Below are positions 11,132 to 64,000 of a stretch of 64,000 nt of DNA, one piece after another (position 1 is the stretch's first letter; each line of letters begins with the position of its first letter). The position numbers were made by a program, and so were the translations under genes. This DNA comes from a virus (Duplodnaviria > Heunggongvirae > Uroviricota > Caudoviricetes). The stretch spans positions 182,482 through 246,481 of IMG/VR virus record IMGVR_UViG_3300028833_000054. One strand, 5' to 3'. The notes beneath the pieces are model-generated. The model was not told where the DNA came from, made no database searches, and saw only the letters and a program-made list of their open reading frames with translations.

Positions 11132-11144
11132 AATTGTGTAGTAA

Positions 11145-12206: not shown

Positions 12207-12208
12207 AC

Positions 12209-13096: not shown

Positions 13097-13158
13097 GCAA
13101 AGTGTTTTAAAAGATTAAACATAATTCAAGCATTTAAAATGCTTTGAAATAATATATG

Positions 13159-14161: not shown

Positions 14162-14199
14162 GTTATAGTATTTCTCTTTAATTATTTATTTTAGATATA

Positions 14200-39491: not shown

Positions 39492-40112
39492 TTATCGTCT
39501 TCCTCCACGGTGTTGATTTCCATTAGGTCTGTGATTTTCACTAGGTCTTGAACCAGGTTGTGGCTTTGGTGGAGGTGGTGTAGGACGATACCTTGGAAGA
39601 GGCATTGGTCTTGGACGATAATATAGTCTTGTATGATTATATGGAATAATTGTTCTTTCATAATAAAAATCATAAATTCTTCTATAAAGAACATGATTTC
39701 TAATTACTCCTGTATCTTTATCAACATACTTGTAAATACCTGTAATATCAATTACACCATTTAAATACATTTGATATAACTCAGGAAAATGATTCTTCAA
39801 TACTTCCATCATTTCAGAATGATTTCTGTAATAGTACTTCATAAAATGATACTTGACTTTGTAATCAACTGTACCATCTTCAAGTACAACTTCTTTCATT
39901 GAGTCAACATCCAAAACTCCTTCCATATAATATGTATAAAGTTGAGGATAATGATTTGCAAGAACATAAGAAATCTCGTCCATCTCTTTGACTCTTCTTT
40001 GATTTGCATAAGATGCTGTTGCACAAGATATGAAAATCATTGATGAAATCAATACGAGTAATAAACTAAATTTTTTCATAGTTAACGATCTTTGTAATTT
40101 TTCTCTAGCCAA
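39492..40112 (-). CDS. Secreted/lipoprotein with two ~45-aa internal repeats and a Pro-rich basic C-terminal tail
   Basis: Signal peptide MKKFSLLLVLISSMIFISCATA (the likely start is the internal Met at ~40079). Repeats LKNHFPELYQMY / LANHYPQLYTYYM. C-terminal PRPMPLPRYRPTPPPPKPQPGSRP. Confidence 0.45.
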   Translation of the reverse strand: MAREKLQRSLTMKKFSLLLVLISSMIFISCATASYANQRRVKEMDEISYVLANHYPQLYTYYMEGVLDVDSMKEVVLEDGTVDYKVKYHFMKYYYRNHSEMMEVLKNHFPELYQMYLNGVIDITGIYKYVDKDTGVIRNHVLYRRIYDFYYERTIIPYNHTRLYYRPRPMPLPRYRPTPPPPKPQPGSRPSENHRPNGNQHRGGRR

Positions 40113-41185
40113 GTTTGATATGTTCCAGAAATAACATTGTTCAACCAGTCTTCATTGTCTAAATACCATTTGACAGTTTTTTCAATTCCGGTGTCAAATG
40201 TTTCTTCTGGCTTCCAACCAAGTTCATTCTGCAATTTACTTGAGTCAATAGCATATCTCAAATCATGGCCTTTTCTATCTGTTACAAATTGTATGCTAGA
40301 CTCATAAGTTCTAACCCACAACGGCTCAGGATTTGTAATATATTTTTTATTGCTTCTAAGTTGTTTTTCATGTGCAAATACTTTAATAATCTTCTTGATT
40401 ATATCAATATTGCTCATTTCGTGGTTTCCTCCAACATTGTAAGTTTCACCAGACTTTCCATTGTGAAAAATAACATCAATTGCTGCTGCATGGTCTTCAA
40501 CATATAACCAATCTCTTACATTTTCACCTGTTCCATAAACTGGTATTTCTTCATGATTCTTCAACTTGTTTATTACAAGCGGAATAAGTTTTTCTGGAAA
40601 TTGATTTGGTCCGTAATTGTTACTGCAATTGCTAATTGTAACATTCAATCCATAAGTATCATGATAAGCTTTTACAATATGGTCTGAACTTGCTTTACTT
40701 GCAGAATACGGAGAATGAGGATTATATGGAGTAGTTTCAGTAAACTTATTCTCTGGATTCATATCAAGTGCACCATAAACTTCATCAGTTGAAACATGAT
40801 GAAATCTATGAATTGCAAGATTATCTTTCCACTTGTTAAGTGCAACTTCTAACAATCTGTATGTTCCAACAATATTAGTATTGATAAACTCACCCGGGTC
40901 AAGAATACTTCTGTCAACGTGACTTTCTGCAGCAAGATTGATTATATCCGTAACATTGTATAAATCAAATGCGTTTTCAACATCTGCTTTATTTGCAATA
41001 TCACCACAGAAAAACTTGTAATTCTTACTTTCTTCAATATCTTTCAAGTTTTCAAGGTTTCCCGCATAAGTAAGTTTGTCAAAATTAATAATCAAATAAT
41101 TAGGATAGTTTTTAACGAATCTCCTAACAACGTGACTACCGATGAAGCCTGCTCCACCGGTAATCATTATAACTTTCTCAAACAT
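40082..41185 (-). CDS. rmlB: dTDP-glucose 4,6-dehydratase
   Basis: ITGGAGFIGSHVVRRFVKNYPNYLIINFDKLTYAGNLENL N-terminus. SDR YxxxK (YSASKASSDH). Full-length colinearity with RfbB. Confidence 0.85.
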   Translation of the reverse strand: MFEKVIMITGGAGFIGSHVVRRFVKNYPNYLIINFDKLTYAGNLENLKDIEESKNYKFFCGDIANKADVENAFDLYNVTDIINLAAESHVDRSILDPGEFINTNIVGTYRLLEVALNKWKDNLAIHRFHHVSTDEVYGALDMNPENKFTETTPYNPHSPYSASKASSDHIVKAYHDTYGLNVTISNCSNNYGPNQFPEKLIPLVINKLKNHEEIPVYGTGENVRDWLYVEDHAAAIDVIFHNGKSGETYNVGGNHEMSNIDIIKKIIKVFAHEKQLRSNKKYITNPEPLWVRTYESSIQFVTDRKGHDLRYAIDSSKLQNELGWKPEETFDTGIEKTVKWYLDNEDWLNNVISGTYQTWLEKNYKDR

Positions 41186-42107
41186 AAAATCTAAATACTT
41201 TTTCTACTACTCTATCAACAGAAGTTGCCCACTGTGGAATAAAAGCATTATAAATGTTAATAACTTTGTCTTTTGATAACAAACCAAACTTAGGTCTCTC
41301 GACATTGGTAGGATAGTCTGATGTCTTACAAGGTTTGATTACTCCTCCAAAGAACATTGACCTCTTAGCAGCTTCTCTCTTATATGCAGCGAGAACCTCA
41401 CAAGCAAAATCATACCAAGTTGTATAACCTAAATTTGAAAAATGATAAATTCCTGATGTAAATGGTACAGTATTAGATGAATCACCAACAATGACATCAG
41501 TAACAATGAATTTTGCCAAATCACCAGCATAAGTAGGAGTTCCGAACTGGTCATCAACAACATTCATATCCTTGTTGTCCTTCATATTCTGAAGAGTAGT
41601 CAATACGAAATTCTTTCCGTATTCAGAATACAACCAAGATGTTCTGATAATCATATACTCAAGGTCTCCGCGTTTTGCAATATTCTGAATCTCTGTCTCA
41701 CCAAGAAGTTTTGTTCTTCCATAAGTGTTGAGAGGACCAGTAGGAGAATCTTCAGTCTTCAAATCAGGACTTCCGTCAAATACATAATCAGTTGAAATAT
41801 GGATAAGACGAATTTTTGACTTCTCGCAAGCTTCAGCAAGAAGCTTAGGACCATATCCATTTGCAAGGATAGCTGCATCTTCATTGTCAGTACAACCACC
41901 AACATTTGTATATGCAGCACAATTGATTACATAATCATAATCGCCGTCTTCGACATATTTCTTTACATGAGTAGAATCCGAAATATTCATTTCAGGCAAA
42001 TCTACTGCATCATATTCAAAAGAATCTCCGTAATTCTTTATAGCATCAATAATACACTTGCCAAGTTGACCATTGGCACCAGTGATAAGAATTTTAGTTT
42101 TCTGCAT
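41178..42107 (-). CDS. rmlD: dTDP-4-dehydrorhamnose reductase
   Basis: KILITGANGQLGKCI Rossmann start and YGRTKLLGE (YxxxK). About 300 aa. Confidence 0.8.
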   Translation of the reverse strand: MQKTKILITGANGQLGKCIIDAIKNYGDSFEYDAVDLPEMNISDSTHVKKYVEDGDYDYVINCAAYTNVGGCTDNEDAAILANGYGPKLLAEACEKSKIRLIHISTDYVFDGSPDLKTEDSPTGPLNTYGRTKLLGETEIQNIAKRGDLEYMIIRTSWLYSEYGKNFVLTTLQNMKDNKDMNVVDDQFGTPTYAGDLAKFIVTDVIVGDSSNTVPFTSGIYHFSNLGYTTWYDFACEVLAAYKREAAKRSMFFGGVIKPCKTSDYPTNVERPKFGLLSKDKVINIYNAFIPQWATSVDRVVEKVFRFYV

Positions 42108-42675
42108 AATAATCTATATTATAATCAAATAAATTGTTTTCATCTATATCTCCCCAAGTAGGGTGGCAGCAATCCTTCTTAGATAAAATAATAGCTCCAT
42201 CATATACCTTTCCCCAATCAATTCCCACAGAATTCCAGTCAAGTGCTGCTTCAGATTCTTTATCATAAGGATTATCACACTTGTATTGGAAGATTGTATC
42301 ATCTTTCAATGCAATAAATCCGTGGGCAAATCCACGAGGAATGAAAAATTGTTTATGATTGTCTTCAGTAAGAAATACACCGACAAATTTTCCAAAGGTA
42401 GGAGAACCTTTTCTAATATCTACTGCAACATCATAGACTGCACCTTTTACTACTCTAACGAGTTTTGACTGTGCAAATGGTGGTTTCTGCCAGTGAAGAC
42501 CTCTGATAACTCCAGCTCTTGATTTACTTTCATTATCTTGAACGAAAGTTGTGTTGCAAACTAATTCTCTAAACTGTTTGTCATTAAACGATTCAAAAAA
42601 ATGACCTCTGTCATCTTTAAAAATATCTGGGTCAATCACATAGACACCAGGAATTTCTTGTTCTGTTACTTTCAT
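42094..42675 (-). CDS. rmlC: dTDP-4-dehydrorhamnose 3,5-epimerase
   Basis: Cupin signature FVQDNESKSRAGVIRGLHWQ...KLVRVVKGAVYDVAVDIRKGSPTFGKF...PRGFAHGF. Confidence 0.8.
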   Translation of the reverse strand: MKVTEQEIPGVYVIDPDIFKDDRGHFFESFNDKQFRELVCNTTFVQDNESKSRAGVIRGLHWQKPPFAQSKLVRVVKGAVYDVAVDIRKGSPTFGKFVGVFLTEDNHKQFFIPRGFAHGFIALKDDTIFQYKCDNPYDKESEAALDWNSVGIDWGKVYDGAIILSKKDCCHPTWGDIDENNLFDYNIDYYAEN

Positions 42676-42739
42676 ACAATTATAACTATACTATTCTTTA
42701 AAATTGTATAAAATATATGAACAAAATATTAAACAAAAA

Positions 42740-42767
42740 AGGAATCTTTTTCAGATTCCTTTCTTTT
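42740..42767 (-). terminator. Bidirectional terminator-like hairpin downstream of the portal gene
   Basis: aggaatct/agattcct 8-bp stem with a 5-nt loop, between an A6 run and a T-rich run. Confidence 0.5.
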
Positions 42768-44577
42768 ACATTCCAAGGTCAGGTGGTGGAGCTTGTGGTA
42801 ATTCTCCTGTACCTGCTCCCATATCTGGTGCTTCTTCTGGGCCGCCACCTGCTTCTTCTGGGCCTCCGCCCATATCCATGCCGCCACCCATGTCAGGACC
42901 GCCCATATCCATTCCACCGCCGAGGTCCATGCCTCCCATATCTCCGCCAGGACCTCCAGGACCGGCACCTGCTTGAGCTTCCTTCTGAGCTTTTTCTGCT
43001 TTCTTCTTCTCATCTTCAAGCATCTTTTGATTGAGTGCCCAGTCATCATCAGTAAAACTTAAATATCTCTGAAGCAAGAACTTCATACTGAATACTGGAG
43101 ATTGGTCTGGATTTTGAAGTTGTGCCAATGTTTGGACTATACCTGTTCCTTGCTCCAGGATAGCCTTTTCCTTTGCTAAAGCGAATACATTCTCTTCAAC
43201 AAACTCTAATCCTAAGGCATTTTTTAGAATATTACTTGATGCAAATTCAGGATATTTCAAGCAGAACTGGTTCCACATTGGCTTCAAAAGAAGTTCCTTG
43301 ATAATATCACGGATTCTTCCAATGAACAAGCTATATTTGTATTCTTCCCTTGTCATATTGCTGTTATCAGGAACAACAGAAACTTCTTGTCCATCAAACA
43401 ACATATTGAATCTATCCTTAGGCAATCTTGTTTCAATCATGAATCTCTGCCAGAACCATTTCAAAGTTTCAGTAGAATTCAAATCATGACCTTCAACACC
43501 AAGTTCTGAAATTTCAGTTTGCTGACCATCTTTACTTGGAAATACAAAGTTCTTTGCAAATGCAAATTTAGGTTGACCATTGACAGTAATTTCACCAGAC
43601 ATGTTGTCAATGTTAATATCTTCTTTGTACCTTGACTCAAGCTCACGAAGTCTTGTCTTAATTCTTTGTTCTGATTGAGTTCCTACAGGAACAACAATTT
43701 TAATTCTCTTCTGTGCATTCTGAATATTCCAAATAATATGAGAATTTTCAAGAGTACGAAGCATATTAAAAGAGTGAATAAGTCTTTCACAATATGACAA
43801 ATGAGATACAAAACTGTTCTTTGCCCATGAAATATAGATAACATTAGTATCAGGAAGAATTCTTTCCTTTACACTGTCACCTTTATACTGAATCCAAACT
43901 TTATACTCATTTCCATAAGCATCTGTTTTAATTTCAGGTTGCAATGTAATAGGATCAAGTTCTTGGAAACCAACTATATCAGTAGCCTTTGTTCCTTCTT
44001 TATTGGATGAATAAATTATTTCAAATGCAAGAAAACCGTCAATCAAGAATTTCTTAACATAAGACCAAGCATCATTTCCTTCATTAAAATGGAATAAATG
44101 ATATACTCTTCTGTATGCTAAATTGATACCATCTACAATTTCTTTACCATTCTCTTTCTTAAGAATTGATTTCAATTGTTTTGTATTCGGATATGCGAAG
44201 TAATGCATATCATCATTAACAATGGTCTCATCAGCAATTGTTTCAAGAACATAGTTGATTTCACCTTGAAGTGCAAACTTTCTAAGGAAATCACGACGCA
44301 TCTGATAAGATTGGTCATAATATGCAATATAGTCATTTTGACCTGCAATATTAGCATGCTTTCTGTATTCCTCATTGTCATATATCATTTGGTTGGTGAG
44401 ATTGTCATTCATGGCAGTCTCATCAGCACCAATACCTCTCATCTGTTTGATAAGAGAACTATTCCATTTAATGCCAATTGCAGACAAATTAAGAAGATTA
44501 GACTCTAGCCTTCTTCTTGCATTTCCGTCAGTATCATTCTTATTGTCTAAGGTTTTTAATATGTATCTCTTAGGCAT
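42766..44577 (-). CDS. Portal protein (T4 gp20-like) with C-terminal Gly/Met/Asp-rich repetitive tail
   Basis: Core resembles gp20 (ERLIHSFNMLRTLENSHIIWNI..., TETLKWFWQRFMIETRLPKDRF compared with T4 [22 protein letters not shown]). C-terminal ~70 aa GPGGPGGDMGGMDLGGGMDMGGPDMGGGMDMGGGPEEAGGGPEEAP. Confidence 0.6.
   Translation of the reverse strand: MPKRYILKTLDNKNDTDGNARRRLESNLLNLSAIGIKWNSSLIKQMRGIGADETAMNDNLTNQMIYDNEEYRKHANIAGQNDYIAYYDQSYQMRRDFLRKFALQGEINYVLETIADETIVNDDMHYFAYPNTKQLKSILKKENGKEIVDGINLAYRRVYHLFHFNEGNDAWSYVKKFLIDGFLAFEIIYSSNKEGTKATDIVGFQELDPITLQPEIKTDAYGNEYKVWIQYKGDSVKERILPDTNVIYISWAKNSFVSHLSYCERLIHSFNMLRTLENSHIIWNIQNAQKRIKIVVPVGTQSEQRIKTRLRELESRYKEDINIDNMSGEITVNGQPKFAFAKNFVFPSKDGQQTEISELGVEGHDLNSTETLKWFWQRFMIETRLPKDRFNMLFDGQEVSVVPDNSNMTREEYKYSLFIGRIRDIIKELLLKPMWNQFCLKYPEFASSNILKNALGLEFVEENVFALAKEKAILEQGTGIVQTLAQLQNPDQSPVFSMKFLLQRYLSFTDDDWALNQKMLEDEKKKAEKAQKEAQAGAGPGGPGGDMGGMDLGGGMDMGGPDMGGGMDMGGGPEEAGGGPEEAPDMGAGTGELPQAPPPDLGM
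42790..42960 (-). repeat. Short tandem coding repeats (GGMDMGG units) at the portal C-terminus
   Basis: Repeated ccatatccat gcc(a/g)cc(a/g)cc units. Generates spurious ORFs in other frames. Confidence 0.55.
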
Positions 44578-44601
44578 TATAATACAATTTCATTTTTATA
44601 T

Positions 44602-45246
44602 TTATTTGTCCTTTCTTATGATAGACTCTTGCACTACAGCTAAATTTGCACCTCTAATTGAATCTGTAAATACTAAATAAGGAATATATTCCCAAACGTC
44701 ATATTCAATGAGACGGATATTTTCAATTGCACTCTTCTTATATTTTCTATATGCTTTTGATATTGGAACTCCACACATGCCGTCAAATACCTTAAGCAAT
44801 TCCTTTCTTCTTGTCTCATCAACTAAGTTCATCATCAAAGAATTACTGAGTTGCAGTCCTTCATTATAAATTCCATAAGAATAAAAATCAGGATTTGATT
44901 TTGCAATTATATCAAGCAATCTACCTCTTACATCATTAGGAAGAAGATTAAAATTTATTCCATATATATACTTGTCATCAACATTTGTACAGAATATAAC
45001 AGGAACATAATCTCTAAATTCATATTTTCCTTCTTTGTCAATATGTTCAGAATTATACTTAAATGTATAAATTAAAGACGGCAATACATCCTTTGTGTAA
45101 TCTTCCATATGTAATCCTGTAACCTGCTTTGATTTATATGGCCCTCTTAAATTTTTATCAAGTGTGTCTGTTACAAGATATTCAAATGCCAACTTTTCAA
45201 GAGTTCGTTTGTCAGAATTATTTCTATAACTATCGTAAAATCCCAT
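44602..45246 (-). CDS. Hypothetical protein
   Basis: 214-aa ORF between the portal and gp4-like genes. Confidence 0.4.
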   Translation of the reverse strand: MGFYDSYRNNSDKRTLEKLAFEYLVTDTLDKNLRGPYKSKQVTGLHMEDYTKDVLPSLIYTFKYNSEHIDKEGKYEFRDYVPVIFCTNVDDKYIYGINFNLLPNDVRGRLLDIIAKSNPDFYSYGIYNEGLQLSNSLMMNLVDETRRKELLKVFDGMCGVPISKAYRKYKKSAIENIRLIEYDVWEYIPYLVFTDSIRGANLAVVQESIIRKDK

Positions 45247-45247
45247 A

Positions 45248-45832
45248 TTAAATTATTCCCATTTTTTGAAGAGTAACCTCTGTAAATACTCTAAATTCAA
45301 TTCCTCTTTCTTCACACCAAGCAACTGCTGCTTTCCACTTTGCATTATTCTGCAAATAAGTTCTTGCAGCTTCATTAAATCTTTTCTGCTCTTGTAATTT
45401 TGCACCAACAGGAGGAGGAACAGGTCTCTCTGTTTGATGTTTCGGTTTTATTTCAATGAACATCTTTTTTGTCTTTGTTCCATCTTCATCATCATCTGCT
45501 CTAATCTCAAGATAAAAATCTGGATAATAATTGTTTATTGGCCAATTTGCTGGGTCAAGAGGAGAAGAATTATATTTTCTGCAAGCATCTAAGTCAACAG
45601 CTGCAGGATTCTTATATTGAATTGAAGCAGTCTCACAGCCCCACTCAATAACAGCAGGATTGTCATCACACCAACGAGCAAATGCCATTTCCCAAGCTGA
45701 ACGGTAAATAACTTCACCTCCAACTACTTTACTTGGATTTTTTGGAACATAGACACCTTGATGCGGTTTTCCCGATTTCTCCTCATTCATTATGTTTGGT
45801 CTATGAGATTTTTTATATGCTAAGGTACTCAT
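45248..45832 (-). CDS. Head completion protein (T4 gp4-like, nuclease fold)
   Basis: GVYVPKNPSKVVGGEVIYRSAWEMAF...VIEWGCETASIQYKNP and C-terminal AKWKAAVAWCEERGIEFRVFTE parallel gp4 (KWVPKNPQKY..., AKWEAAERYANKLGVKF). PD-(D/E)xK-like YPDFYLEI...FIEIKP. Confidence 0.55.
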   Translation of the reverse strand: MSTLAYKKSHRPNIMNEEKSGKPHQGVYVPKNPSKVVGGEVIYRSAWEMAFARWCDDNPAVIEWGCETASIQYKNPAAVDLDACRKYNSSPLDPANWPINNYYPDFYLEIRADDDEDGTKTKKMFIEIKPKHQTERPVPPPVGAKLQEQKRFNEAARTYLQNNAKWKAAVAWCEERGIEFRVFTEVTLQKMGII

Positions 45833-50387: not shown

Positions 50388-50442
50388 AAACTAATAATTA
50401 ACAATTTAATATTTTATCAAAAAAATAAGAAGTATATTTCTT

Positions 50443-51273: not shown

Positions 51274-51275
51274 AA

Positions 51276-53591: not shown

Positions 53592-53594
53592 ATA

Positions 53595-54551
53595 TTATAT
53601 AATATTCTCTATCTTATATTTTTCTATAACTTTATCATAATTGCCTTCTTCGACAAGACAGTCTTTAAAATACATTGCAGTATTAAACATCACTTCTTTA
53701 ACATTTGCAACGGTAACATCATTCTTTACTATATGTTTGTCATCATATAGAGTTAAAGCAATATAAGTAAAATATGCAATATAGTAGTATTGTAAATTGC
53801 TATATTTTTGATAACATGCTGGTTCTTCTACTTCCTTTTCATAATCCCATGTTGAAGAAGCATTTGGACCTGTATATATAATTTTATACTCATCTACTAT
53901 ATGAAGTTTTCCACCTAATGCCATTACTTGTAACCAAAATATAGTATCACCTGCCATATAATGAATACATTTTGGATGATGTTTGTCATAAAATGATTTT
54001 CTTAAACAAGACCCAGGATTGTGATACAAATATACATCATCACAATATCCTGCCAAATGAGATATTGCTGGAGGACAATTATTAAAATATGAAACCCACT
54101 CATCATAATTTTTAATAATATGTGGTTCATATCTGCTTTTATCAATATTATTGATATCTATTATCCTCGTATTTTCATAAAATATCAATTTTCCGCTACA
54201 TCCATCTATATCAGGATGTGCATCCATATAATTAACAAAGCACTCTAAAAAGTCTGGAAGCAATACATCGTCATGGTCAAGTCTAAAAAGCAATTCGCCG
54301 GAAGCATATTCATATGATTTGTTGAAAGAATCAATATATGGCCATTTACAATTTGTAGTATTTACAAATAATTTAAACCTCTTGTCTCTTACACAATATT
54401 CATTTGAAACAATATTTACCGTATTGTCTGTAGAATAATCATCTACTATAATTACCTCATAATCATTGAAAGTTTGAGACAATACAGAATCTAATGTCCG
54501 GCGAATTGTTTTTTCAGAGTTATATGTTGTTACACATATACTTACTTTCAT
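53595..54551 (-). CDS. GT2-family glycosyltransferase (paralog C) between nrdD and nrdG
   Basis: VSICVTTYNSEKTIRRTLDSVLSQTFNDYEVIIVDDYSTDNT, KRFKLFVN, YIDSFNKSYEYA, DHDDVLLPDFLE. Confidence 0.75.
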   Translation of the reverse strand: MKVSICVTTYNSEKTIRRTLDSVLSQTFNDYEVIIVDDYSTDNTVNIVSNEYCVRDKRFKLFVNTTNCKWPYIDSFNKSYEYASGELLFRLDHDDVLLPDFLECFVNYMDAHPDIDGCSGKLIFYENTRIIDINNIDKSRYEPHIIKNYDEWVSYFNNCPPAISHLAGYCDDVYLYHNPGSCLRKSFYDKHHPKCIHYMAGDTIFWLQVMALGGKLHIVDEYKIIYTGPNASSTWDYEKEVEEPACYQKYSNLQYYYIAYFTYIALTLYDDKHIVKNDVTVANVKEVMFNTAMYFKDCLVEEGNYDKVIEKYKIENII

Positions 54552-54554
54552 ATA

Positions 54555-56297
54555 TTAATTTTTAATATGTTTTACTCTATCTTTTGTTTCTGCAATTTTA
54601 CCGTTGTTAAAAGCAGTAGTATAATTACCTGTAAGATAACCAGTTACACGACGAAGTCTTGTAATATTGTCACTTCCACACTTTGGACATTTTTCACCAA
54701 TCTCATCTTGATAACCGCAATCCTCACAGCAGTCAAGAGGAAGGTTGACAGCAAAATAAGGAATATCCTTGTCCATTGCATAATTGACAAGAGTTTCAAG
54801 AGCATCAATGTTGTTCTTTACTGTAGAAGGAAGCTCAACATAAGTAATTGTTCCTGCATTTCCCTTGTTTGCCCACTGTGACTCAATATCGATCTTCTGG
54901 AAGGGGTCCATCTCTTTCCAAACAGGAACGTGGATAGAGTTGGTGAAATAATCTCTGTCAGAAACTCCTTCAATGATTCCGTATTTCTTTCTGAAGTTCT
55001 TCAATGCAGTGTAGCAAAGATTCTCTGCAGGTGTGAAATAAACACCGAAATTAAGTTTGTATTCCTCCTTATACTTCTTGCAAGTATCACCATACAACTT
55101 AACTATTTCATCTGTGAGTTCCTTTCCTATACCAACAAAATGGTCACAGCCAAACAAAGCGTGAGAAGTCTCATTCATACCGAGAAGGCCGATGGTCAAA
55201 GTTCCGTGCTTGAGAGCCGATACAATTCCTTCTTCAGGAATATAACCAGCCATTGTGTGATTTTCATACATAAACTTTGCTGACTCCATAGGTTGTTTGC
55301 AAATCCAGTTGAAACGCTCAATCAACATATCCTTTGCTTCTTCCAACTTTGTCTTCATCATCTCAATGAAATATCTCTTCAACATTTCATCGGTATACAT
55401 ATTGTTGGTCTCTGCAATACATTTCTCCTTAGCTTCCATTGCAATTGTAGGAAGAATAATTGTAACAGGACAAATGTTTCCTCTACCGTCTTTCTGCTGT
55501 CCGAGACCATTAATATCAAATCCATTAACAGTTCTGCAACCCATTGTAGCATAATATGTTAAAGGATTATTTCTATCCCAACCAGCATTCATTGTAGTAT
55601 CACAGTTACAGTAGTTAGGATAAATTCTCTGCGCAGTTGACTTCAATGCAAGGCGGAACAAATCGTAGTTAGGTGAATCAGGTTCGCGGTTTACTCCCTT
55701 CATACATTGGAAAATTCCACAAGGGAAGATTGAAGTTCTGCCAAATTTACCAAGACCTTCAATTGAAACTTCAAGAAGAGCCTTAGTAATCATTCTTCCT
55801 TCATCAGAAGTACAGGTACCGTAGTTGATACTTGTAAAAGGAAGTTGATTTCCTGAACGTGACTGAAGAGTATTCAAATTATGATACATTCCTTCAACTG
55901 CCTGATGGATTTCTTTCTTAAGCATATCCATTGCATAATTGTAAACCTTAGCAGTGCAAGTTGCATAGAATTGGTCATTGATTGAAAGATTTTTCAACTC
56001 TTCTCTTGTCTTATTATCAATATCTTTCTCATCAATATATTTTGCTCCATCTTTAAAATGCTTGTAAAAACTCATTCTAACATAAGGAACCATTGTCCAA
56101 TCAAGATGGCTAGCTGAAACACCACCAAACTGTTGGAGTGACTGAAGTTGGAAAATAACAGCAACGAGCTGCATAGCAGTATTGACTGAACTTGCAGGAC
56201 GTACATCTGTCTGACGGGTATTGAAACCCTTATCTAGTAAATCATCAAAAGGAATAGTTAAACAGTTATGCATTCCTGTTGCATATGAATCTAAATC
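54555..56297 (-). CDS. nrdD: Anaerobic ribonucleoside-triphosphate reductase, exon 2
   Basis: Colinear with the NrdD body (NCLTIPFDDLLDKGF... matches E. coli NCMLIDLKGMLTQGF...). C-terminal Zn ribbon CCEDCGYQDEIGEKCPKCGS and glycyl-radical motif RLRRVTGYL. The in-frame extension upstream of the annotated Met gives ...DLDSYATGMHNC, matching NrdD HDLDYSPFFPMFNC. Confidence 0.8.
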   Translation of the reverse strand, partial: DLDSYATGMHNCLTIPFDDLLDKGFNTRQTDVRPASSVNTAMQLVAVIFQLQSLQQFGGVSASHLDWTMVPYVRMSFYKHFKDGAKYIDEKDIDNKTREELKNLSINDQFYATCTAKVYNYAMDMLKKEIHQAVEGMYHNLNTLQSRSGNQLPFTSINYGTCTSDEGRMITKALLEVSIEGLGKFGRTSIFPCGIFQCMKGVNREPDSPNYDLFRLALKSTAQRIYPNYCNCDTTMNAGWDRNNPLTYYATMGCRTVNGFDINGLGQQKDGRGNICPVTIILPTIAMEAKEKCIAETNNMYTDEMLKRYFIEMMKTKLEEAKDMLIERFNWICKQPMESAKFMYENHTMAGYIPEEGIVSALKHGTLTIGLLGMNETSHALFGCDHFVGIGKELTDEIVKLYGDTCKKYKEEYKLNFGVYFTPAENLCYTALKNFRKKYGIIEGVSDRDYFTNSIHVPVWKEMDPFQKIDIESQWANKGNAGTITYVELPSTVKNNIDALETLVNYAMDKDIPYFAVNLPLDCCEDCGYQDEIGEKCPKCGSDNITRLRRVTGYLTGNYTTAFNNGKIAETKDRVKHIKN

Positions 56298-56381
56298 CGT
56301 TTACTTCTATATTTTCATATAAAAACTGACTATATCATCAACCGTTTGGTTGTTGCGCACTTCGAATAGTTCTGCATTACT

Positions 56382-56690
56382 CTATTCTACATCCTTACAC
56401 TCATCAGGATTAGTCGATACACTGTTATGAGTTCTTTTTTCTCTTCTAATTTTAAGAGATTTTAAGTGCATATGTTTTTGAAATTTTGGTTCCCAAGAAT
56501 TTTTCAGAAGTTGTTCAATTATAGTTCTTGAAATATTAAAATTATCTTTACAATACTTATATAATTTCGTATGACCTAAACAAGTATAAACTAAAATGTC
56601 ATTATAATATACAAAATATTCATAAGGACAATCTCTGTCCATCATTTTGTTATAAGCATCTTCTGATAATTTTTTTTCCTTTATTTGCAA
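56382..56690 (-). CDS. Hypothetical ORF inside the intron (possible detached/frameshifted C-terminal DNA-binding part of the homing endonuclease)
   Basis: 102-aa ORF overlapping the 3' end of the GIY-YIG ORF by 41 nt in another frame. Confidence 0.3.
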   Translation of the reverse strand: MQIKEKKLSEDAYNKMMDRDCPYEYFVYYNDILVYTCLGHTKLYKYCKDNFNISRTIIEQLLKNSWEPKFQKHMHLKSLKIRREKRTHNSVSTNPDECKDVE

Positions 56691-57210
56691 TACTTAATTT
56701 TCTTAATTCTTCTTCTGTTTTTATTCTTCCTGTATTTGCTGCAATTAATTTAGAAATATGTTCAGGAGAAAGATGCTTTCCTTTATTGATTTCACTTAAT
56801 TTTTTTCTCGTTTCTAAAGAATGTGTTTTTCCATACATCGGATTTAATTCTCCAATACGAGTTGATGCAAATTTACTAAGTTTATCATGGCGTTGAGGAC
56901 TATCATAATTTCCAGTATTTCCTCCACATCCTCCTTCATGAAAATTAGCTTTACATTCTCCTTTATCCCAGTATTCTTTTATAAGTTGTCTTTCTAAATC
57001 AAATGCTGCAGATTCTTCCAAATTTTCAAAGAGCAATTTTACATCTACATCTGTAGGATATTTAGAAATAATATTTTTGAAATAGTCATTTCTACTATGA
57101 ACAGTATCTAAATATCTATTTCCTGTTCCTTTTCCTATATAAAATATCTCATCAGTTGATTTGAAGAAATATGCGTAAATATAAAATTTTTTCATATGCA
57201 TTGAACTCAA
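56650..57210 (-). CDS. GIY-YIG homing endonuclease with NUMOD3 repeats
   Basis: YIYAYFFKSTDEIFYIGKGTGNRY (GIY...YIG), downstream Arg/Glu/Asn catalytic residues, and two NUMOD3-like repeats MYGKTHSLETRKKLSEINKGK and HLSPEHISKLIAANTGR. Confidence 0.75.
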   Translation of the reverse strand: MSSMHMKKFYIYAYFFKSTDEIFYIGKGTGNRYLDTVHSRNDYFKNIISKYPTDVDVKLLFENLEESAAFDLERQLIKEYWDKGECKANFHEGGCGGNTGNYDSPQRHDKLSKFASTRIGELNPMYGKTHSLETRKKLSEINKGKHLSPEHISKLIAANTGRIKTEEELRKLSIANKGKKIIRRCL

Positions 57211-57404
57211 TTTAGCTCGGTATTTCCAGCTATCCAGAATCTGGACCTTAGGTTCTCTTAGTCAGTGTATTCGTGAGTGATTCAATCTCCTTATTTAACT
57301 GATACCGATAGCAAACAAATATTATTTTAATATTTATTCACACCCCAGCAGTTGGGTTCACGCAATTTTCAAAATCTGTTCCCAGATTAGGCCACAATTA
57401 ATTT

Positions 57405-57902
57405 ATGGATATAAATTTCATTGTTCAAATGATTGTTTCTTGCCATTTCTGACATGCAATTCCACAAAGCAAAGTCTTTTGTAATGACTCTTGTTGCTTC
57501 ACCGACTCGGCCACCGAATGATTTCTCATCTACATTAGCATTCTGATTCTGAACATTCTTTGCTTCAAGCTTTTCCTTGATACCTTTCATTATCTTGGAT
57601 TTCTGTTCACGAACTCTTGTTCTTTTGTCTCTGTAAAGAATAAAAGCTTTTGCAACTTCAAACTTATTTTTCTTAATCAAAAACTTCTCAATGACATCTT
57701 GAATGTCTTCAATTGACGCTGTTCCTTCAGCAGAATCTTCAAACTTTGCAAGGTCTTCATCAAGAAGTTCCAAAAATTTTGGAGTGCATTCTTGCTTGCA
57801 GGAACTGAATGCTTGACCTACGGCCTTGTGTGCTTTTTCACGATTGTAAACTTCCTGTTTACCGTCTCTTTTGATTACTTTTTCTAGCATATATTTTACC
57901 AA
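57405..57902 (-). CDS. nrdD: Anaerobic ribonucleoside-triphosphate reductase, exon 1 (ATP-cone plus N-terminal region)
   Basis: ATP-cone VIKRDGKQEVYNREKAHKAV. Ends ...NNHLNNEIYIH, aligned with NrdD ...GDIHYH. The ORF reads 5 further codons (KLIVA) into the intron before a stop at 57387-57389. Confidence 0.75.
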
Positions 57903-57948
57903 TTTTTTATTTTTCTGTGAATATATTTATTGAGCCAAGAGCTCAAAT

Positions 57949-59832
57949 TCACAAGATGATATCCTTCAATTTGTTATCTAAATCTGTCCTTTCGTCACCC
58001 TGGCCAGGATTATTTTCGAGATGAAATTTTACTGAATCATAAACATATTTGAACGGAATCTCATCCTTTCTTGACTCTTCATCTTTCAAGAATTGTTGTA
58101 AATTATATATAGAAAAGTTGAAATAATTAGGAGTCCATCCACCCTTTAGTTCTGGCATATCTTTACAAGATTCAGTTATAATTCTAGAGGATTCATTCAT
58201 TATATCTTTATAACTTTCCCACCATTTTTCAGTAAAATTCAAATTTCCAAAATTAGAATCTCCTTCATTGTAATTCATTACACTAAATAGATATTTTAAT
58301 CCTATTACCGGTAAGACCATATGATGATTGATATTCAATATATTTAGAAGATGATTATCTTCAGGGAATTTATGCATTATAGCAGGAGTCATATATTTGT
58401 CAAAGTTCTCAAAAAATCCAGGAGTATACAATGTACAATATCCGCAGAACGGATAACCTCCTTGACAGAAACAATTTGCAAATGAAGATATTGCATATTT
58501 TCTTCCATAATAGTTATATGATTTAATCATTGTTTCAACAAATACAGGAGAATACAAAATATCATCATCAATGCATATAATAACATCATCTTTTGAGAAA
58601 TGTTGTATTACATACAAATGCTTTTTCCATGATTTCAATTCAGCATCATCATACCAATGAATTTGAATATTAAGATTTGATTTAATCAATTCTATGAGTT
58701 CTTGAGGAAACAGCTTATACTCTTCAAGATATTTCAAATCTTTATTATAATCAGGAATAGGAAAATCAGATTTTGCTAAATTAAGAACAATAATATCAGG
58801 AACAATACTATTTTCAAGAATAGTTTTCAATACAAGAGCAACATTGTTTATTCTATTTTTCCAACTTGATATTGTAACTATAAGTTTATTGTTTCCAATA
58901 TATTTTGTTTTATCTGAAGTTCTTTCTATATCAAGTCCTAAAGCAGGAAAATCTACTGGAGTGTTAGCAGTCAATGCATGCTTTTTATTGTTCTCATATA
59001 AAAATTTTAATGATGCTGGAGGGTCAACATAAGTGCTCTCTGAGACAGCTAATGTGTCATTAATAATATCCCAAAATCTTGGAATAAACTTCGATGGTCT
59101 GCCTCTAAAGTAGTGCCTCTGCAAAGAATCTTCCATAGATGGAAGTGTTGTTGCATACAAGTCTAATATAGGACTCTTGCTTTCTTCATGCCTGTCTGCT
59201 GCAGCTTTATCTGTCCACGCATTGACATCATTGAACAGCATTTTGCTATCTTCTGGCAAATGAAATATTTCAGGAAGAAGTATGCTTTTATTGATAGCAA
59301 ACAACACTCCTATAAAAATATCATCTACACATTTGTGTAAAACATCATCTGTCAAATACTTCTTGTAATTACCCCAGTCTTTCTTTCTGTACAATGTTGC
59401 AGGACCGTTGAAACACCACATATTGTGTGTCAATACTATCTTATTAAGAGTAACAGGATGCTGTTTACCATAAAAACAATATGAAACATACATGTTCTCT
59501 ATAAAATTCTCAGGATACAAATGGTCATCATCAACAGAAATTATAAGGTCATTGTCATCAACAATGTCAAGAGTATGAAGATGTTTCTTCCAAGCTTTAT
59601 AATTCTCAATAAACCAATAAAGCTCTATATATCCTTTGTGTTCATTTATGAGTGATAATAAATCATCGGGAAGGTCTTCCTCCATATTAGGAAAATCTTC
59701 TGTACACAAATTAAGAATTATTTTATAGGGCTTTATTGTTTGCTTTAATATAGTTTCAATAACAGGTTTTACATTATGGATTCTTTTGTACCAACTTGTC
59801 ATTGTAATATACAATTTCTCTGGTATAATCAT
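57949..59832 (-). CDS. Tandem-duplicated putative glycosyltransferase (two GT-A/DXD 'sugar-binding-region'-like modules)
   Basis: Two ~210-aa homologous halves: TSWYKRIHNVKPVIETILKQTIKPYKIILNL...WKKHLHTLDIVDDNDLIISVDDDHLYPENFIENMYVSYCFYG and SSWKNRINNVALVLKTILENSIVPDIIVLNL...WKKHLYVIQHFSKDDVIICIDDDILYSPVFVETMIKSYNYYG. Confidence 0.5.
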   Translation of the reverse strand: MIIPEKLYITMTSWYKRIHNVKPVIETILKQTIKPYKIILNLCTEDFPNMEEDLPDDLLSLINEHKGYIELYWFIENYKAWKKHLHTLDIVDDNDLIISVDDDHLYPENFIENMYVSYCFYGKQHPVTLNKIVLTHNMWCFNGPATLYRKKDWGNYKKYLTDDVLHKCVDDIFIGVLFAINKSILLPEIFHLPEDSKMLFNDVNAWTDKAAADRHEESKSPILDLYATTLPSMEDSLQRHYFRGRPSKFIPRFWDIINDTLAVSESTYVDPPASLKFLYENNKKHALTANTPVDFPALGLDIERTSDKTKYIGNNKLIVTISSWKNRINNVALVLKTILENSIVPDIIVLNLAKSDFPIPDYNKDLKYLEEYKLFPQELIELIKSNLNIQIHWYDDAELKSWKKHLYVIQHFSKDDVIICIDDDILYSPVFVETMIKSYNYYGRKYAISSFANCFCQGGYPFCGYCTLYTPGFFENFDKYMTPAIMHKFPEDNHLLNILNINHHMVLPVIGLKYLFSVMNYNEGDSNFGNLNFTEKWWESYKDIMNESSRIITESCKDMPELKGGWTPNYFNFSIYNLQQFLKDEESRKDEIPFKYVYDSVKFHLENNPGQGDERTDLDNKLKDIIL

Positions 59833-63943: not shown

Positions 63944-64000
63944 GTTAGGAGGAGTTACCTTGTAAGGCTTATTCTTCTCTGCACGGACATAAGCATCAAC

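Follow-up and report, generated by a model that had tools for sequence, protein, structure and literature searches.

A glycosyltransferase island interleaved with core genes of a huge phage is separate in gene order from the DNA-modification module and may serve a non-DNA acceptor

The window analyzed here, 64 kb of a 363.8-kb metagenomic contig from a gut or rumen huge phage that is distant kin of the Lak megaphages, holds two separate sugar systems that are independent in gene order: a DNA-modification module beside PolB and a glycosyltransferase (GT) island in the portal region. We favor, at a probability of about 0.6, a reading in which the island is a soluble glycan-assembly line acting on an acceptor other than DNA. 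This reading starts from what was observed in the 64 kb read out of 364 kb, namely the enzyme families and folds, a split of the island into conserved and variable genes, and the gene-order independence of the two modules. Eight GT genes (nine domains) are supported in the window, and two further candidates are unverified; 8–10 of the ~62 genes are GT-like, whereas relatives sharing the backbone have between zero and several at these positions, and this load is not chance. The gene inventory of the initial annotation is correct as judged by Pfam, NCBIfam, PHROG, PDB, and AF2/Foldseek matches, all of its genes lie on the minus strand where it had placed them, and Pfam and PHROG matches bear out the core genes for portal, gp4, UvsX, NrdD, and NrdG (Table 1). 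The stretch 60158–64000 needs revision, being the last part of an ORF of 3,898 aa.

Table 1. Features of the two sugar systems and of the core genes around them
Feature	Position	Strand	Evidence or context
297-aa neighbor of GT-B gene, candidate GT-A-like	1830..2723	-	DDDN motif
GT-B-fold GT adjoining PolB	2720..3787	-	AF2 pLDDT 86; Foldseek
dUTPase/dCTP-deaminase superfamily enzyme, upstream of PolB-N	5243..5785	-	PF00692 54.5 bits; PF22769 weak
dCMP hydroxymethylase (T4 gp42 type)	9736..10437	-	PDB 1b5e, E 2e-71
P-loop nucleotide kinase, overlaps hydroxymethylase gene	10434..11057	-	weak AAA_28, guanylate-kinase, and thymidylate-kinase matches
GT2 gene, 417 aa, inside NAD-dependent DNA ligase gene	35153..36406	-	PF00535 70.9 bits
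Predicted lipoprotein, last gene of rml unit	39492..40112	-	signal peptide, lipobox Cys, Pro-rich basic tail
rmlC-rmlD-rmlB, dTDP-L-rhamnose steps 2–4	40082..42675	-	all above NCBIfam equivalog cut-offs
Hairpin with T-run, then CATATATTT motif	42676..42765	-	sequence read; upstream of rmlC
Portal, gp2-like DNA end protector, gp4-like head closure	42766..45832	-	PF07230; phrog_429; phrog_218 E 2e-39
GT2 paralog a	45829..46716	-	PF00535 66.9 bits; overlaps start of gp4-like gene's neighbor
GT92-like/Glyco_tranf_2_4 GT	46713..47876	-	PF13704 49.3 bits, PF01697 27.4 bits, both above cut-off
GT2 paralog b	48322..49146	-	PF00535 86.7 bits; between uvsX and conserved 149-aa gene
UvsX-like recombinase (core)	49146..50387	-	PF00154; phrog_97 E 2e-49
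GT6-like candidate GT	50443..51273	-	NCBIfam NF041524 only, remote; variable gap
288-aa protein, travels with GT6-like gene	51276..52142	-	variable gap
NAD-dependent SDR	52105..53124	-	PF01370, 148 bits; conserved in clade
NrdG activase (core)	53109..53591	-	PF13353, 149 bits
GT2 paralog c	53595..54551	-	PF00535 101 bits; variable gap, nrdD-nrdG
nrdD	54555..57902	-	Pfam; NUMOD3 endonuclease ORF in 1,107-bp insertion, ~56298–57395
Tandem double GT-A glycosyltransferase, 627 aa	57949..59832	-	internal repeat; AF2/Foldseek; conserved in clade
3,898-aa ORF, C-terminal third in window	60158..64000	-	lamin-tail domain

The order giant ORF, tandem GT, nrdD, nrdG, epimerase...uvsX, 149-aa gene, GT92, gp4 recurs in the relatives L055, L064, and L065, with the giant ORF upstream of the tandem GT each time, and the number and position of the GT2, GT6-like, and 288-aa genes differ among the three. 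The tandem GT, the epimerase, and the GT92-like GT form a conserved set that stays put (44–75% conserved across the clade); the GT2 copies, the GT6-like gene, rmlBDC, and the GT2 inside ligA are variable cargo in fixed gaps between core genes. Some GT genes of the island are conserved between close relatives, and others have been gained, lost, duplicated, or fused. Every GT ORF is intact and has a DXD motif; the GT genes are 97–100% conserved in L001 and L002 and are translationally coupled to essential genes. The GT and rml genes also share the low GC3 of the core genes, which marks them as long-resident.

The nrdD gene is itself interrupted. The breakpoints of its insertion were placed by blastn against an intact 742-aa allele in L060, and this 1.1-kb stretch with its homing-endonuclease gene is missing from a co-occurring allele. 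In L054, both nrdD and uvsX are in pieces. The places where GT genes lie are typical sites of homing. We infer that GT genes accumulate at recombination hot spots between or within conserved DNA-metabolism genes, in the same places used by homing endonucleases, and endonuclease activity at these very loci, here and in L054, is consistent with such a mechanism.

Within the conserved set, the tandem GT is truly duplicated, as had been proposed: residues 6–189 and 316–510 share 35% identity (E 1e-25), and the two halves align by hhalign at E 2e-55. The AF2 model (pLDDT 92.8) has two GT-A domains, each half with a DDD motif and R...DDD...ED residues. Its best Foldseek matches in the PDB are the bifunctional two-domain polymerases PmHS2 (E 2e-12), LARGE1, and K4CP; further matches include RmlT, KfiA, SpsA, and TarP (E ~2e-6). 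More than 70 full-length homologues (38–70% identity) are all metagenomic, and none was found in GenBank phages. The SDR, at 59–75% identity in L054, L055, L064, and L065, has as nearest solved relatives the UDP-glucose 4-epimerase 4zrm (E 8e-46), WbgU, WbpP, and UDP-GlcA 4-epimerases and is probably an NDP-hexose, NDP-HexNAc, or NDP-HexA 4-epimerase. The GT92-like GT is largely conserved in the clade (67–72% identity in L055, L064, and L065), is fused with a GT2 domain into a 699-aa protein in L055, and has, among GenBank phages, relatives only in the 15 Lak phages and a single phage of 595 kb.

The variable genes come and go at defined places. The three GT2 genes are paralogous, all above the PF00535 cut-off with mutual identity of 32–48% (paralog c is 48% identical to b and 32% to a). 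For paralog a, the gap is empty in L003, L004, and L007; for b, L055 and L065 have an empty gap, and L064 has two GT2 genes there. Paralog c is missing from the nrdD-nrdG gap in L055 and L064, and an unrelated 485-aa ORF sits there in L065. The GT6-like candidate matches NF041524, "family 6 glucosyltransferase," at E 2.8e-8 (33.6 bits versus a cut-off of 250), had no match in Pfam, PHROG, or PDB sequences, and has homologues of 30–32% identity in L055 and L065. For the adjoining 288-aa protein, Pfam, PHROGs, and NCBIfam gave no match and hhalign no link to GT families; two tandem paralogs of it adjoin the GT6-like gene in L065. The proposed GT2 insertion in ligA is also real, as the flanking ORFs are the two parts of the ligase (adenylation and OB on one side, Zn/HhH/BRCT on the other) and form one ORF in L003 (699 aa) and L005 (722 aa).

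The rml genes pass curated NCBIfam cut-offs: RmlB (40082–41185) scores 460.9 bits with TIGR01181 (cut-off 365), RmlD (41178–42107) 239.6 bits with TIGR01214 (cut-off 224), and RmlC (42094–42675) 222.1 bits with TIGR01221 (cut-off 156). As initially annotated, rmlA was not found in the window, with no nucleotidyltransferase-family match among ORFs of at least 80–90 aa; it may lie elsewhere on the 364-kb contig. The cassette is specific to this lineage, being present in L002 and missing between portal and ligA in L003, L005, and L007; its GC3 of 0.22–0.24 is at the core-gene level. The lipoprotein gene, whose product has the sequence LLVLISSMIFISC and a maximum hydropathy of 2.24, tracks rml: both are in L002, and it is missing where rml is missing. 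The hairpin, T-run, and CATATATTT upstream of rmlC suggest that the cassette is transcribed as a separate unit; this layout also precedes 38447–39109, 32918–33544, and 30461–31003. The CATATATTT motif, which occurs 10 times versus 2.6 expected, includes the Bacteroides-type TAnnTTTG.

The DNA-modification module lies apart from all of this. Its thymidylate-synthase homologue keeps the catalytic Cys, the Asp that sets cytosine specificity, and an Asp at the position equivalent to D169 of Escherichia coli ThyA; 5-hydroxy-dCMP synthases are recognized by an Asn there (PMC13326640). Such a T4-type dCMP hydroxymethylase, 65–74% identical in L052 and L053, makes it likely that the phage DNA carries 5hmC and upholds the original inference of hydroxymethyl-dC. 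The overlapping P-loop protein, without an NCBIfam match, is a probable dNMP kinase, and its adjacency to the hydroxymethylase is conserved in relatives. The enzyme first called dCTPase-family belongs instead to the trimeric dUTPase/dCTP-deaminase superfamily, falls below the dUTPase equivalog cut-off, and is conserved in L052, L053, and Lak-B2. The GT-B protein, from a family of only 14 clusters, matches the PBCV NY2A GT, TarM, SenB, MshA, and PimA by Foldseek, as well as T4 beta-GT at E 4e-6, and is the best candidate for a 5hmC-DNA glycosyltransferase. In the longer contigs of L052 and L053, its gene comes after PolB-N and the dUTPase-like gene, and the whole run from hydroxymethylase to the 297-aa gene is syntenic; L050 and L051 showed no other window gene besides the GT-B homologue. 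The 297-aa neighbor (52–54% identity in L052 and L053) had no family, PDB, or profile match, but D108, D110, and N111 are invariant in 69 relatives, and it is an unverified candidate for a GT-A-like protein. The hydroxymethylase, kinase, and dUTPase/dCTP-deaminase-type enzyme would supply hm-dCTP, and the GT-B protein, perhaps with its neighbor, would glycosylate 5hmC.

For the island, we propose cytoplasmic, soluble, Leloir-type glycan assembly. RmlB, RmlC, and RmlD would turn host dTDP-glucose into dTDP-L-rhamnose, the SDR would epimerize a UDP-sugar, and the tandem GT-A, GT92-like, three GT2, and GT6-like enzymes would transfer sugars sequentially, and the product would be a hetero-oligosaccharide or a short polymer of repeats, with rhamnose among its sugars; we infer the donors other than rhamnose, the order of transfer, and the acceptor. 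No membrane segment was found in the island GTs, and no initiating phosphoglycosyltransferase, flippase, polymerase, or ligase was found in the 64-kb window, so that the island is self-sufficient only for a cytoplasmic acceptor. As acceptor we tentatively favor a protein of the virion, the second option of the initial annotation; the fiber-like protein of 3,898 aa encoded just upstream of the tandem GT would be an example. The tandem GT resembles two-site polymerases, and its best viral Foldseek matches are multi-domain GTs of giant viruses; in L055, the fusion of GT2 with GT92 ties their two steps together, and relatives with empty gaps also fit. Against it, no glycoprotein, sequon, or acceptor was pinpointed, and the giant ORF may adjoin the tandem GT simply because gene order is kept along the entire backbone. 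In addition, the co-transcription of rml with the lipoprotein gene and the host-like promoter motif suit an envelope function better, and the best solved matches of the tandem GT are capsule polymerases that use lipid-linked primers.

Remodeling of host surface glycans was not among the two options of the initial annotation. The soluble GTs could act at the cytoplasmic face of the membrane, either on host precursors of O-antigen, capsule, or protein glycans carried on undecaprenyl or on a lipid-linked capsule primer. Display of the altered glycan by the host's own flippase or exporter would then keep competing phages from adsorbing and progeny from binding to debris. We regard this as rather unlikely, although it matches the published reading of multi-GT and NDP-sugar clusters in jumbo phages (PMC7824862). 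The rmlCDB-lipoprotein unit behind a terminator and TAnnTTTG-containing motif is moron-like; the lipoprotein, however, may be an unrelated exclusion gene. PmHS2 and K4CP are capsule polymerases, and K4CP partners with a UDP-GlcNAc 4-epimerase, much as the 4-epimerase-like SDR is a conserved partner of the tandem GT. An MFS transporter also lies inside the L054 cluster. By named profile, the GT2 paralogs come closest to GTs for exopolysaccharide, teichuronic acid, and colanic acid, but these NCBIfam matches (EpsE, TuaG, PglI, and WcaA) reach 66–78 bits against cut-offs of 400–500 and cover only the N-terminal half that binds the nucleotide-sugar donor. The missing initiating transferase, flippase, polymerase, and ligase count against such remodeling, and at least eight transferase domains suggest a glycan made from scratch, an unlikely substrate for host Wzx/Wzy.

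The initial annotation had instead linked the island to hydroxymethyl-dC. With dTDP-rhamnose and an epimerized UDP-sugar, the island GTs could extend the glycan on 5hmC beyond its first sugar, giving a multi-sugar, possibly rhamnose-containing hypermodification that varies between relatives under modification-dependent nucleases. A conserved T4-type hydroxymethylase is encoded, the GTs, being soluble, would need no lipid carrier, and the tandem-GT operon shares TGATATAAT with the hydroxymethylase and helicase operons. The GT genes lie within nrdD-nrdG-uvsX-ligA operons, but the portal gene shares an operon with them as well, so that this placement does not single out DNA. We consider this extension unlikely, as the hmC module already has its own conserved GT-B protein and 297-aa neighbor by PolB, the island GTs vary among close relatives, and similar cyanophage clusters are found without hmC. 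Enzymes of the GT6 and GT92 families, moreover, typically add to sugars of existing glycans. Phage enzymes with a GT-A fold have been published that act on 5hmC and make DNA di- and trisaccharides (bioRxiv 10.1101/2023.12.21.572611), as have phage-encoded NDP-sugar pathways for DNA glycans (PMC13326640); contrary to what had been suggested, GT-A-based DNA glycosylation would thus not be new, and only rhamnose on DNA still would be. Each tandem-GT half has the R...DDD...ED residues of the reported DNA GT-A motif, and its TarP match is at the level reported for those enzymes, but both are general GT2 features. At least seven extra transferase domains also exceed any known DNA glycan, for which up to three sugars are published (bioRxiv 10.1101/2023.12.21.572611; PMC13326640). 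Weighing against a non-DNA acceptor, the hydroxymethylase and the conserved GT set apparently occur together at least once more, on a contig of 110,821 bp, so that phyletic pattern leaves room for the DNA link.

Spread of the GT genes by endonuclease-driven co-conversion without a coherent pathway would fit the homing sites, the nrdD insertion lacking in a co-occurring allele, and the splitting of ligA, but it is very improbable given the intact ORFs, coupling to essential genes, core-like composition, and conservation both in L001 and L002 and across the clade. The same applies to a drain on host NDP-sugars, although sugar sequestration has been discussed as an idea (bioRxiv 10.1101/2023.12.21.572611).

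Multi-GT clusters in jumbo phages are already described, and the role proposed for the GT-B protein is like DNA glycosylation in T-even phages. With a virion protein as acceptor, the island would work much as in chloroviruses and mimiviruses, whose own enzymes glycosylate their capsids and fibrils; in mimivirus, viral enzymes make the polysaccharides of Rha-GlcNAc repeats found on the fibrils (PMC9614988).

Sugar-handling genes are dense in this part of the phage genome, with about one gene in seven across the 64 kb making or transferring sugars. Every item that the initial annotation listed for the island lies where it was placed, and its count of at least eight or nine GT-like genes holds: there are eight supported glycosyltransferase (GT) genes with nine catalytic domains. 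The three GT2 genes of the island, described there as close paralogs, share 32–48% identity and pass the Pfam cut-off, as does the GT2 gene reported inside ligA, which does split that gene. The proposed GT92-like protein passes the Glyco_tranf_2_4 profile and, marginally, the GT92 profile. Two further GT-A-like candidates fared differently. The tandem duplication has two GT-A domains, whereas the GT6-like gene remains a candidate, as its remote match does not reach the profile cut-off and phmmer gave no match to solved GT6 structures. Beside the polymerase, where GT-A and GT-B candidates had been suggested, the GT-B fold was recovered in a structural model, but the neighboring 297-aa protein gained no support as a GT-A enzyme; it has no PDB, Pfam, PHROG, or NCBIfam match, and its family profile found nothing in the PDB or in the tandem GT. 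Scattered Pfam GT matches among its multi-domain relatives may belong to other domains. This protein and a 288-aa island protein are the two candidates beyond the supported eight, and hhalign of the latter against the GT2 proteins, the GT6-like protein, and both tandem-GT halves gave probabilities below 1%. No membrane segments were found in the GTs.

Coordinates (window positions) and supporting observations for the features discussed
Feature	Position	Strand	Observation
297-aa protein	1830-2723
GT-B protein	2720-3787		model pLDDT 86, GT-B fold; T4 beta-GT among structural matches, E 4e-6
PolB-N	3744-5228		494 aa; exonuclease domain and start of polymerase domain
dUTPase-like	5243-5785		PF00692, PF22769
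dCMP hydroxymethylase	9736-10437		T4 gp42 (1b5e), E 2e-71
P-loop kinase	10434-11057		overlaps hydroxymethylase gene
2,059-aa ORF	17547-23726	+	no Pfam or PHROG match
Sigma-70-family factor	27075-27821		regions 2 and 4
SPFH/flotillin-like	31097-32881		GC 50%, GC3 53% (0.53)
102-aa ORF	34040-34348		Tad8, E 0.002, 18 bits (cut-off 27)
Split ligA	34350-37680		interrupted after OB domain
GT2 in ligA	35153-36406		417 aa; PF00535 70.9 bits (cut-off 23.3); DXD motif VDHDD
Lipoprotein	39492-40112		lipobox ...ISC
RmlB, dTDP-glucose 4,6-dehydratase			TIGR01181, 460.9 bits (cut-off 365.1)
RmlC, 3,5-epimerase			TIGR01221, 222.1 bits (cut-off 155.75)
RmlD, 4-reductase			TIGR01214, 239.6 bits (cut-off 224.05)
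Portal	42766-44577	-
GT2a	45829-46716	-	PF00535 66.9 bits (cut-off 23.3); LDGDD
GT92-like	46713-47876	-	PF01697 (GT92) 27.4 bits (cut-off 23), marginal; PF13704 49.3 (cut-off 27.5)
GT2b	48322-49146	-	PF00535 86.7 bits (cut-off 23.3); IDADD
GT6-like	50443-51273	-	NCBIfam GT6 glucosyltransferase NF041524, E 2.8e-8, 33.6 bits (cut-off 250)
288-aa protein	51276-52142	-
SDR/epimerase	52105-53124	-	nearest to 4-epimerases
GT2c	53595-54551	-	PF00535 101.3 bits (cut-off 23.3); LDHDD
nrdD	54555-57902	-
Insertion in nrdD	~56298-57395	-	1,107 bp
NUMOD3 homing-endonuclease ORF	56650-57210		within nrdD insertion
Tandem GT	57949-59832	-	model pLDDT 92.8; two GT-A domains
End of giant ORF	60158-64000		continues beyond the window (L057, 1-9675)
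Motif class 1	42711, 39127, 33573, 31023	-	CATATATTT(G)
Motif class 2	59855, 29990, 11078	-	TGATATAAT

As first noted, rmlB, rmlD, and rmlC are present without rmlA; all three products exceed NCBIfam equivalog cut-offs, and no nucleotidyltransferase match that would indicate RmlA (glucose-1-phosphate thymidylyltransferase) was found among the ORFs of the 64-kb window. The dTDP-glucose could come from the host's own enzyme. Among GenBank phages, 168 records contain RmlC homologues. The interdigitation with core genes also stands, for portal, gp4-type head closure, UvsX, NrdD, and NrdG, and a gp2-like gene can be added.

Comparison with relatives divides the island into a conserved core and variable gaps. 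Three loci with tandem-GT relatives (L055, L064, and L065) share the order giant ORF (3,898–4,091 aa), 73–75-aa ORF, tandem GT, nrdD, nrdG, epimerase, uvsX, 149-aa ORF, GT92-like, and gp4-like. A fourth, L054, is a looser version, with nrdD in three pieces (12063-15020), uvsX in two (19688-21346), and the epimerase, a 249-aa ORF, and an MFS transporter before nrdG. Identity to the window across these four loci is 44–55% for the tandem GT and 59–75% for the epimerase. Between nrdD and nrdG, the window has GT2c, L055 and L064 have nothing, and L065 has an unrelated 485-aa ORF. The epimerase/uvsX gap holds the 288-aa and GT6-like genes in the window, the GT6-like gene alone in L055, and two 288-aa paralogs with the GT6-like gene in L065; it is empty in L064. 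GT2b fills the space between uvsX and the 149-aa gene, where L064 has two GT2 genes and L055 and L065 have none. The GT92-like protein of L055 is fused to a GT2 domain. Among portal relatives, L003, L004, and L007 (portal identity 61–69%) pass directly from the 149-aa gene to gp4-like, and L003, L005, and L007 pass from portal to an intact ligA without rml genes. Because these relatives lack rml and keep ligA whole, the rmlC-rmlD-rmlB-lipoprotein unit and the GT2 insertion in ligA are specific to the species-level lineage of the window (L001 and L002). Near the GT92-like gene of Lak-B2, only gp4-like and dUTPase-like homologues were found, in a different layout.

In T-even phages, nrdD, nrdG, uvsX, ligA, and PolB are conserved genes targeted by homing endonucleases and introns. 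The GT-holding gaps of the window lie between or inside these five genes. The insertion in nrdD encodes a NUMOD3 homing endonuclease and a 102-aa ORF, and an insertion-free allele (742-aa NrdD) with flanks 99–100% identical is present in JGI sample 3300024342; the search for a group I intron in the insertion gave no Rfam match at E < 0.1. It is possible that the recombination hot spots used by homing endonucleases also collect GT cargo, and the position of GT genes beside DNA-metabolism genes might reflect gene mobility rather than function. The NAD-dependent DNA ligase gene, a single ORF of 699–722 aa in relatives, is interrupted in the window such that stop and start codons overlap on both sides of the GT2 gene. 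The GT and rml genes were not acquired recently from a host, as their GC3 (0.16–0.24) equals or lies below that of phage core genes. The SPFH/flotillin-like gene, in contrast to genome values of ~32% GC and 22% GC3, is clearly a recent foreign acquisition.

Two classes of motif stand upstream of transcription units, each 3–4 times commoner than in shuffled sequence. The first is a hairpin and T-run followed by a motif in which the Bacteroides-type −7 element TAnnTTTG is embedded, and it stands before rmlC and before three more units. The second is found ahead of three operons, those of the tandem GT, the helicase, and the kinase/hydroxymethylase. A phage-encoded sigma factor that adjoins the helicase and is kept in relatives may read one of the two classes. 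Operon or promoter class proved uninformative as a timing clue, because portal is transcribed together with uvsX and with nrd and GT genes. The rml unit ends in a gene for a predicted lipoprotein, which contains an internal repeat and has a basic tail rich in Pro; relatives without rml lack this gene.

The best portal matches among GenBank phages are Prevotella Lak megaphages (44–45% identity over 72% of the protein), and thus the T4-like core genes belong to a huge phage that is a distant relative of the Lak group. The next-best matches are other metagenomic phages of 460–735 kb. No close relative of the portal was found among GenBank phages, and megablast of the 20-kb region gave no match; near-identical copies of the window sequence are present in JGI sample 3300024342 and IMG/VR. 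Searches for identical proteins put the window at about 168,524-232,523 of the 363,826-bp ENA contig ERZ27257202 k141_5984702. Scans of IMG/VR with a PolB-N query or a tandem-GT alignment each returned the same species only, and a hydroxymethylase scan returned only relatives of ~50% identity, none of them on the L003, L005, or L007 contigs. Relatives come from SHIW14 and GenBank AUXO01 samples, which we take to be sheep rumen, and the tandem GT has distant matches in Neocallimastix and Methanobrevibacter; a gut or rumen habitat fits. The portal of L005 is spread over three consecutive ORFs under table 11 (10001-11863), possibly a sign of stop-codon reassignment of the kind known from Lak phages. 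Elsewhere in the window, the 2,059-aa ORF on the opposite strand shows weak similarity to L003 sequence, and the 102-aa ORF beside ligA has a sub-threshold match to the Thoeris inhibitor Tad8.

The initial annotation also proposed hydroxymethyl-dC (hmC) from a dCMP-hydroxymethylase-type enzyme. That proposal is strong, but the hmC genes form a module separate from the island. The hydroxymethylase keeps the catalytic Cys ('fmCtC'), the cytosine-specificity Asp that replaces ThyA Asn177 ('frnDlaw'), and an Asp at the equivalent of Escherichia coli ThyA D169 ('RSCDaifG'). Substitution D169N marks enzymes that make 5-hydroxy-dCMP rather than 5-hydroxymethyl-dCMP (Lee et al. 2026, PMC13326640); with Asp at this position and the catalytic residues kept, we predict that the product is hm-dCMP. 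The adjacent kinase has weak P-loop kinase matches, none of them in NCBIfam, and its adjacency is kept in relatives. The supposed dCTPase-family enzyme turned out to belong to the trimeric dUTPase/dCTP-deaminase superfamily, other than the gp56 type, and could remove dCTP. Two relatives (hydroxymethylases 74% and 65% identical) retain a syntenic block of kinase and hydroxymethylase, dUTPase-like gene, PolB-N, GT-B, and 297-aa gene. In L052 and L053, the two longer contigs with the module, the dUTPase-like gene and PolB-N come before GT-B; around GT-B in L050 and L051, no other window gene was found. The GT-B family comprises only 14 clusters in 5.8 billion proteins, and its modeled fold makes this protein the natural candidate for an hmC-DNA glycosyltransferase. 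The family-B polymerase ORF of this module (L049, L052, and L053) is not adjacent to a C-terminal half; GT-B, the 297-aa gene, a metallophosphatase, a Lys-rich protein, and then terminase on the other strand lie there instead. As the layout is the same in two relatives, the polymerase is split, with its parts encoded far apart.

The tandem GT is an internal duplication (E 1e-25; halves by hhalign, E 2e-55) modeled as a single chain in which each GT-A domain has a DXD motif. Its best solved Foldseek matches, over the whole length, are the bifunctional two-domain polymerases PmHS2, LARGE1, and K4 chondroitin polymerase (K4CP) (E 2e-12 to 6e-8), followed by single-domain GT2 enzymes including the rhamnosyltransferase RmlT and TarP. 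The closest viral models are giant-virus multi-domain GTs. PmHS2, K4CP, and human LARGE1 likewise carry two GT-A domains with DXD in one chain, but identity is 9–15% and whole-chain TM-scores are 0.25–0.3, such that the domain arrangement differs; moreover, the tandem-GT halves are paralogs (35% identical), whereas these polymerases join different GT families. K4CP works with the 4-epimerase KfoA, and the tandem GT too has a 4-epimerase-like partner. GT-A DNA glycosyltransferases have been recognized by R...DDD...ED(Y/F) motifs and a JGT/TarP-like fold (Pyle et al. 2023). Corresponding residues are present in the tandem GT (R17, D101–103, and ED/DD near residue 170; R327, D422–424, and E491-D492), as is a match to TarP (E ~2e-6); features of this kind are general to GT2.

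For the acceptor of the island enzymes, our analysis favors a virion protein, with a probability of about 0.35. This reading is suggested by an enzyme set that would be self-sufficient in the cytoplasm and by the giant-virus GTs that are structural neighbors of the tandem GT; Rha-HexNAc polymers on Mimivirus fibrils and multi-domain rhamnosyltransferases in chloroviruses provide precedent (PMC9614988). Also counted toward it is the giant fibre-like ORF that lies directly upstream of the tandem GT both here and in L055, L064, and L065. The 3,898-aa product of this ORF matches a lamin-tail domain and has homologues of 3,929–4,091 aa in relatives, one with a faint phage-tail C-terminal match; it is probably a giant virion fibre.

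A host-envelope glycan, the published reading of multi-GT jumbo-phage clusters (PMC7824862), is a more doubtful acceptor. The rml unit begins with a terminator and the Bacteroides-type motif and ends with the lipoprotein gene, and the tandem GT resembles capsule polymerases. Yet lipid-carrier machinery was not found, with no initiating phosphoglycosyltransferase, flippase/ABC exporter, polymerase, or ligase among the window ORFs; host enzymes could serve the undecaprenyl-pathway steps.

That the island GTs act on DNA is unlikely. The phage is predicted to contain hmC, GT-A enzymes are known to build up to trisaccharides on hmC (bioRxiv 10.1101/2023.12.21.572611), and phages make their own NDP-sugars for DNA glycans (PMC13326640), but the hmC module has a conserved GT-B apart from the island, the transferase domains are very many, and similar clusters exist in cyanophages without hmC (PMC7824862), all of which argues against it. 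In its fullest form, which we consider more improbable still, the tandem GT and the variable GT2, GT92-like, and GT6-like enzymes would extend the 5hmC sugar to a rhamnose-containing oligosaccharide, the first deoxyhexose-containing DNA glycan of more than three sugars, with strain variation driven by modification-dependent nucleases. Net charge did not discriminate DNA-acting GTs (pI 4.9–5.8 for island GTs, 6.1 for T4 alpha-GT, 9.05 for beta-GT). On contigs that are fragments, hydroxymethylase and tandem GT co-occur once, apparently on one 110,821-bp contig, and the top 120 hydroxymethylase matches do not include the 313-kb contig that carries the tandem GT. Some other acceptor or role is improbable to a similar degree.

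The huge phages that inhabit animal guts have yet to be cultured, and only a minority of their genes can be given a function. A virion-protein acceptor would extend giant virus–style self-glycosylation to tailed phages of Gram-negative gut bacteria, a DNA acceptor would mean a new class of DNA glycan, and a host-surface acceptor would give a lytic relative of the megaphages a large system for superinfection exclusion. For annotation, GT genes near a hydroxymethylase should not be assumed to modify DNA. The conserved core of tandem GT, epimerase, and GT92-like protein, with its swappable accessory GTs, is a comparative frame that indicates which genes to co-express.

T-even phages glucosylate hmC with gp42, gp1, gp56, alpha-GT, and beta-GT. 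The window resembles this set in its hydroxymethylase with catalytic residues, adjoining nucleotide kinase, and GT-B-fold transferase. It differs in that its dCTP-removing candidate has a trimeric dUTPase/dCTP-deaminase fold rather than being of gp56 type, its GT-B resembles neither alpha-GT nor beta-GT in sequence, and many GT-A genes and a rhamnose pathway are added. We know of no report of rhamnose on DNA.

Jumbo phages carry multi-GT and NDP-sugar clusters, such as the 15-gene cluster of cyanophage P-SSM2 (Iyer, Anantharaman, Krishnan, Burroughs and Aravind 2021, PMC7824862). Like the island, these combine GT paralogs from several families with an RmlC-type cupin isomerase and with NAD-dependent epimerase/dehydratases, of which there are one to four; they are sporadic, polymorphic between related phages, set in a T4-like core background, and of predicted function. 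Those clusters form one block, whereas the window genes fill separate gaps between, and once inside, replication and head genes. The window further differs in its anchor, a clade-conserved tandem double GT-A enzyme, in having no sugar kinase or nucleotidyltransferase within its bounds, in its T4-type hmC pathway, and in its gut/rumen habitat and Lak-related lineage. Phage DNA-glycan clusters (Pyle, Lund, O'Toole, Saleh 2023, bioRxiv 10.1101/2023.12.21.572611; Lee et al. 2026, PMC13326640) likewise place GT-A and GT-B enzymes beside a thymidylate-synthase homologue, polymerase, terminase, epimerases, and secondary GTs, put up to three sugars on cytosine, and use phage-made UDP-arabinose or UDP-galactofuranose, the latter via a phage mutase. 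They are compact, with one to three GTs near the base-modifying enzyme, whereas the island lies ~30–50 kb from the hydroxymethylase and has at least seven transferase domains.

PBCV-1 A064R and its partners, and Mimivirus, share with the window virus-encoded multi-domain GT-A enzymes, L-rhamnose synthesis, and, as predicted for the window, soluble cytoplasmic assembly without host ER or lipid carriers, the Rha-HexNAc repeat polymers on fibrils being theirs (PMC9614988). Their hosts are eukaryotic and their route is to UDP-rhamnose (UGD/UGER), whereas the window encodes the bacterial dTDP route (RmlB/C/D). The likeness of the tandem GT to their enzymes is one of structural neighbors. Freeman and colleagues reportedly described glycosylation of mycobacteriophage capsids and tails in 2023. 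The idea of virion glycosylation in actinobacteriophages is echoed in PMC11256854. Those phages also encode soluble GTs near structural genes, with glycans found on their virion proteins, but they have one to four GTs and no NDP-sugar pathway, and the hosts and GT families differ.

GT-A-based DNA glycosylation, first put forward as a novelty, cannot count as one, as GT-A DNA glycosyltransferases are already published; so are jumbo-phage multi-GT/NDP-sugar clusters and virus-encoded rhamnose pathways. What is new is that a gut/rumen huge phage related to Lak combines a T4-type hmC pathway and a large glycan tool-kit. New, too, are the arrangement of the island as a conserved core interrupted by variable gaps, the GT gene that splits ligA, and a clade-specific tandem GT family absent from GenBank phages.
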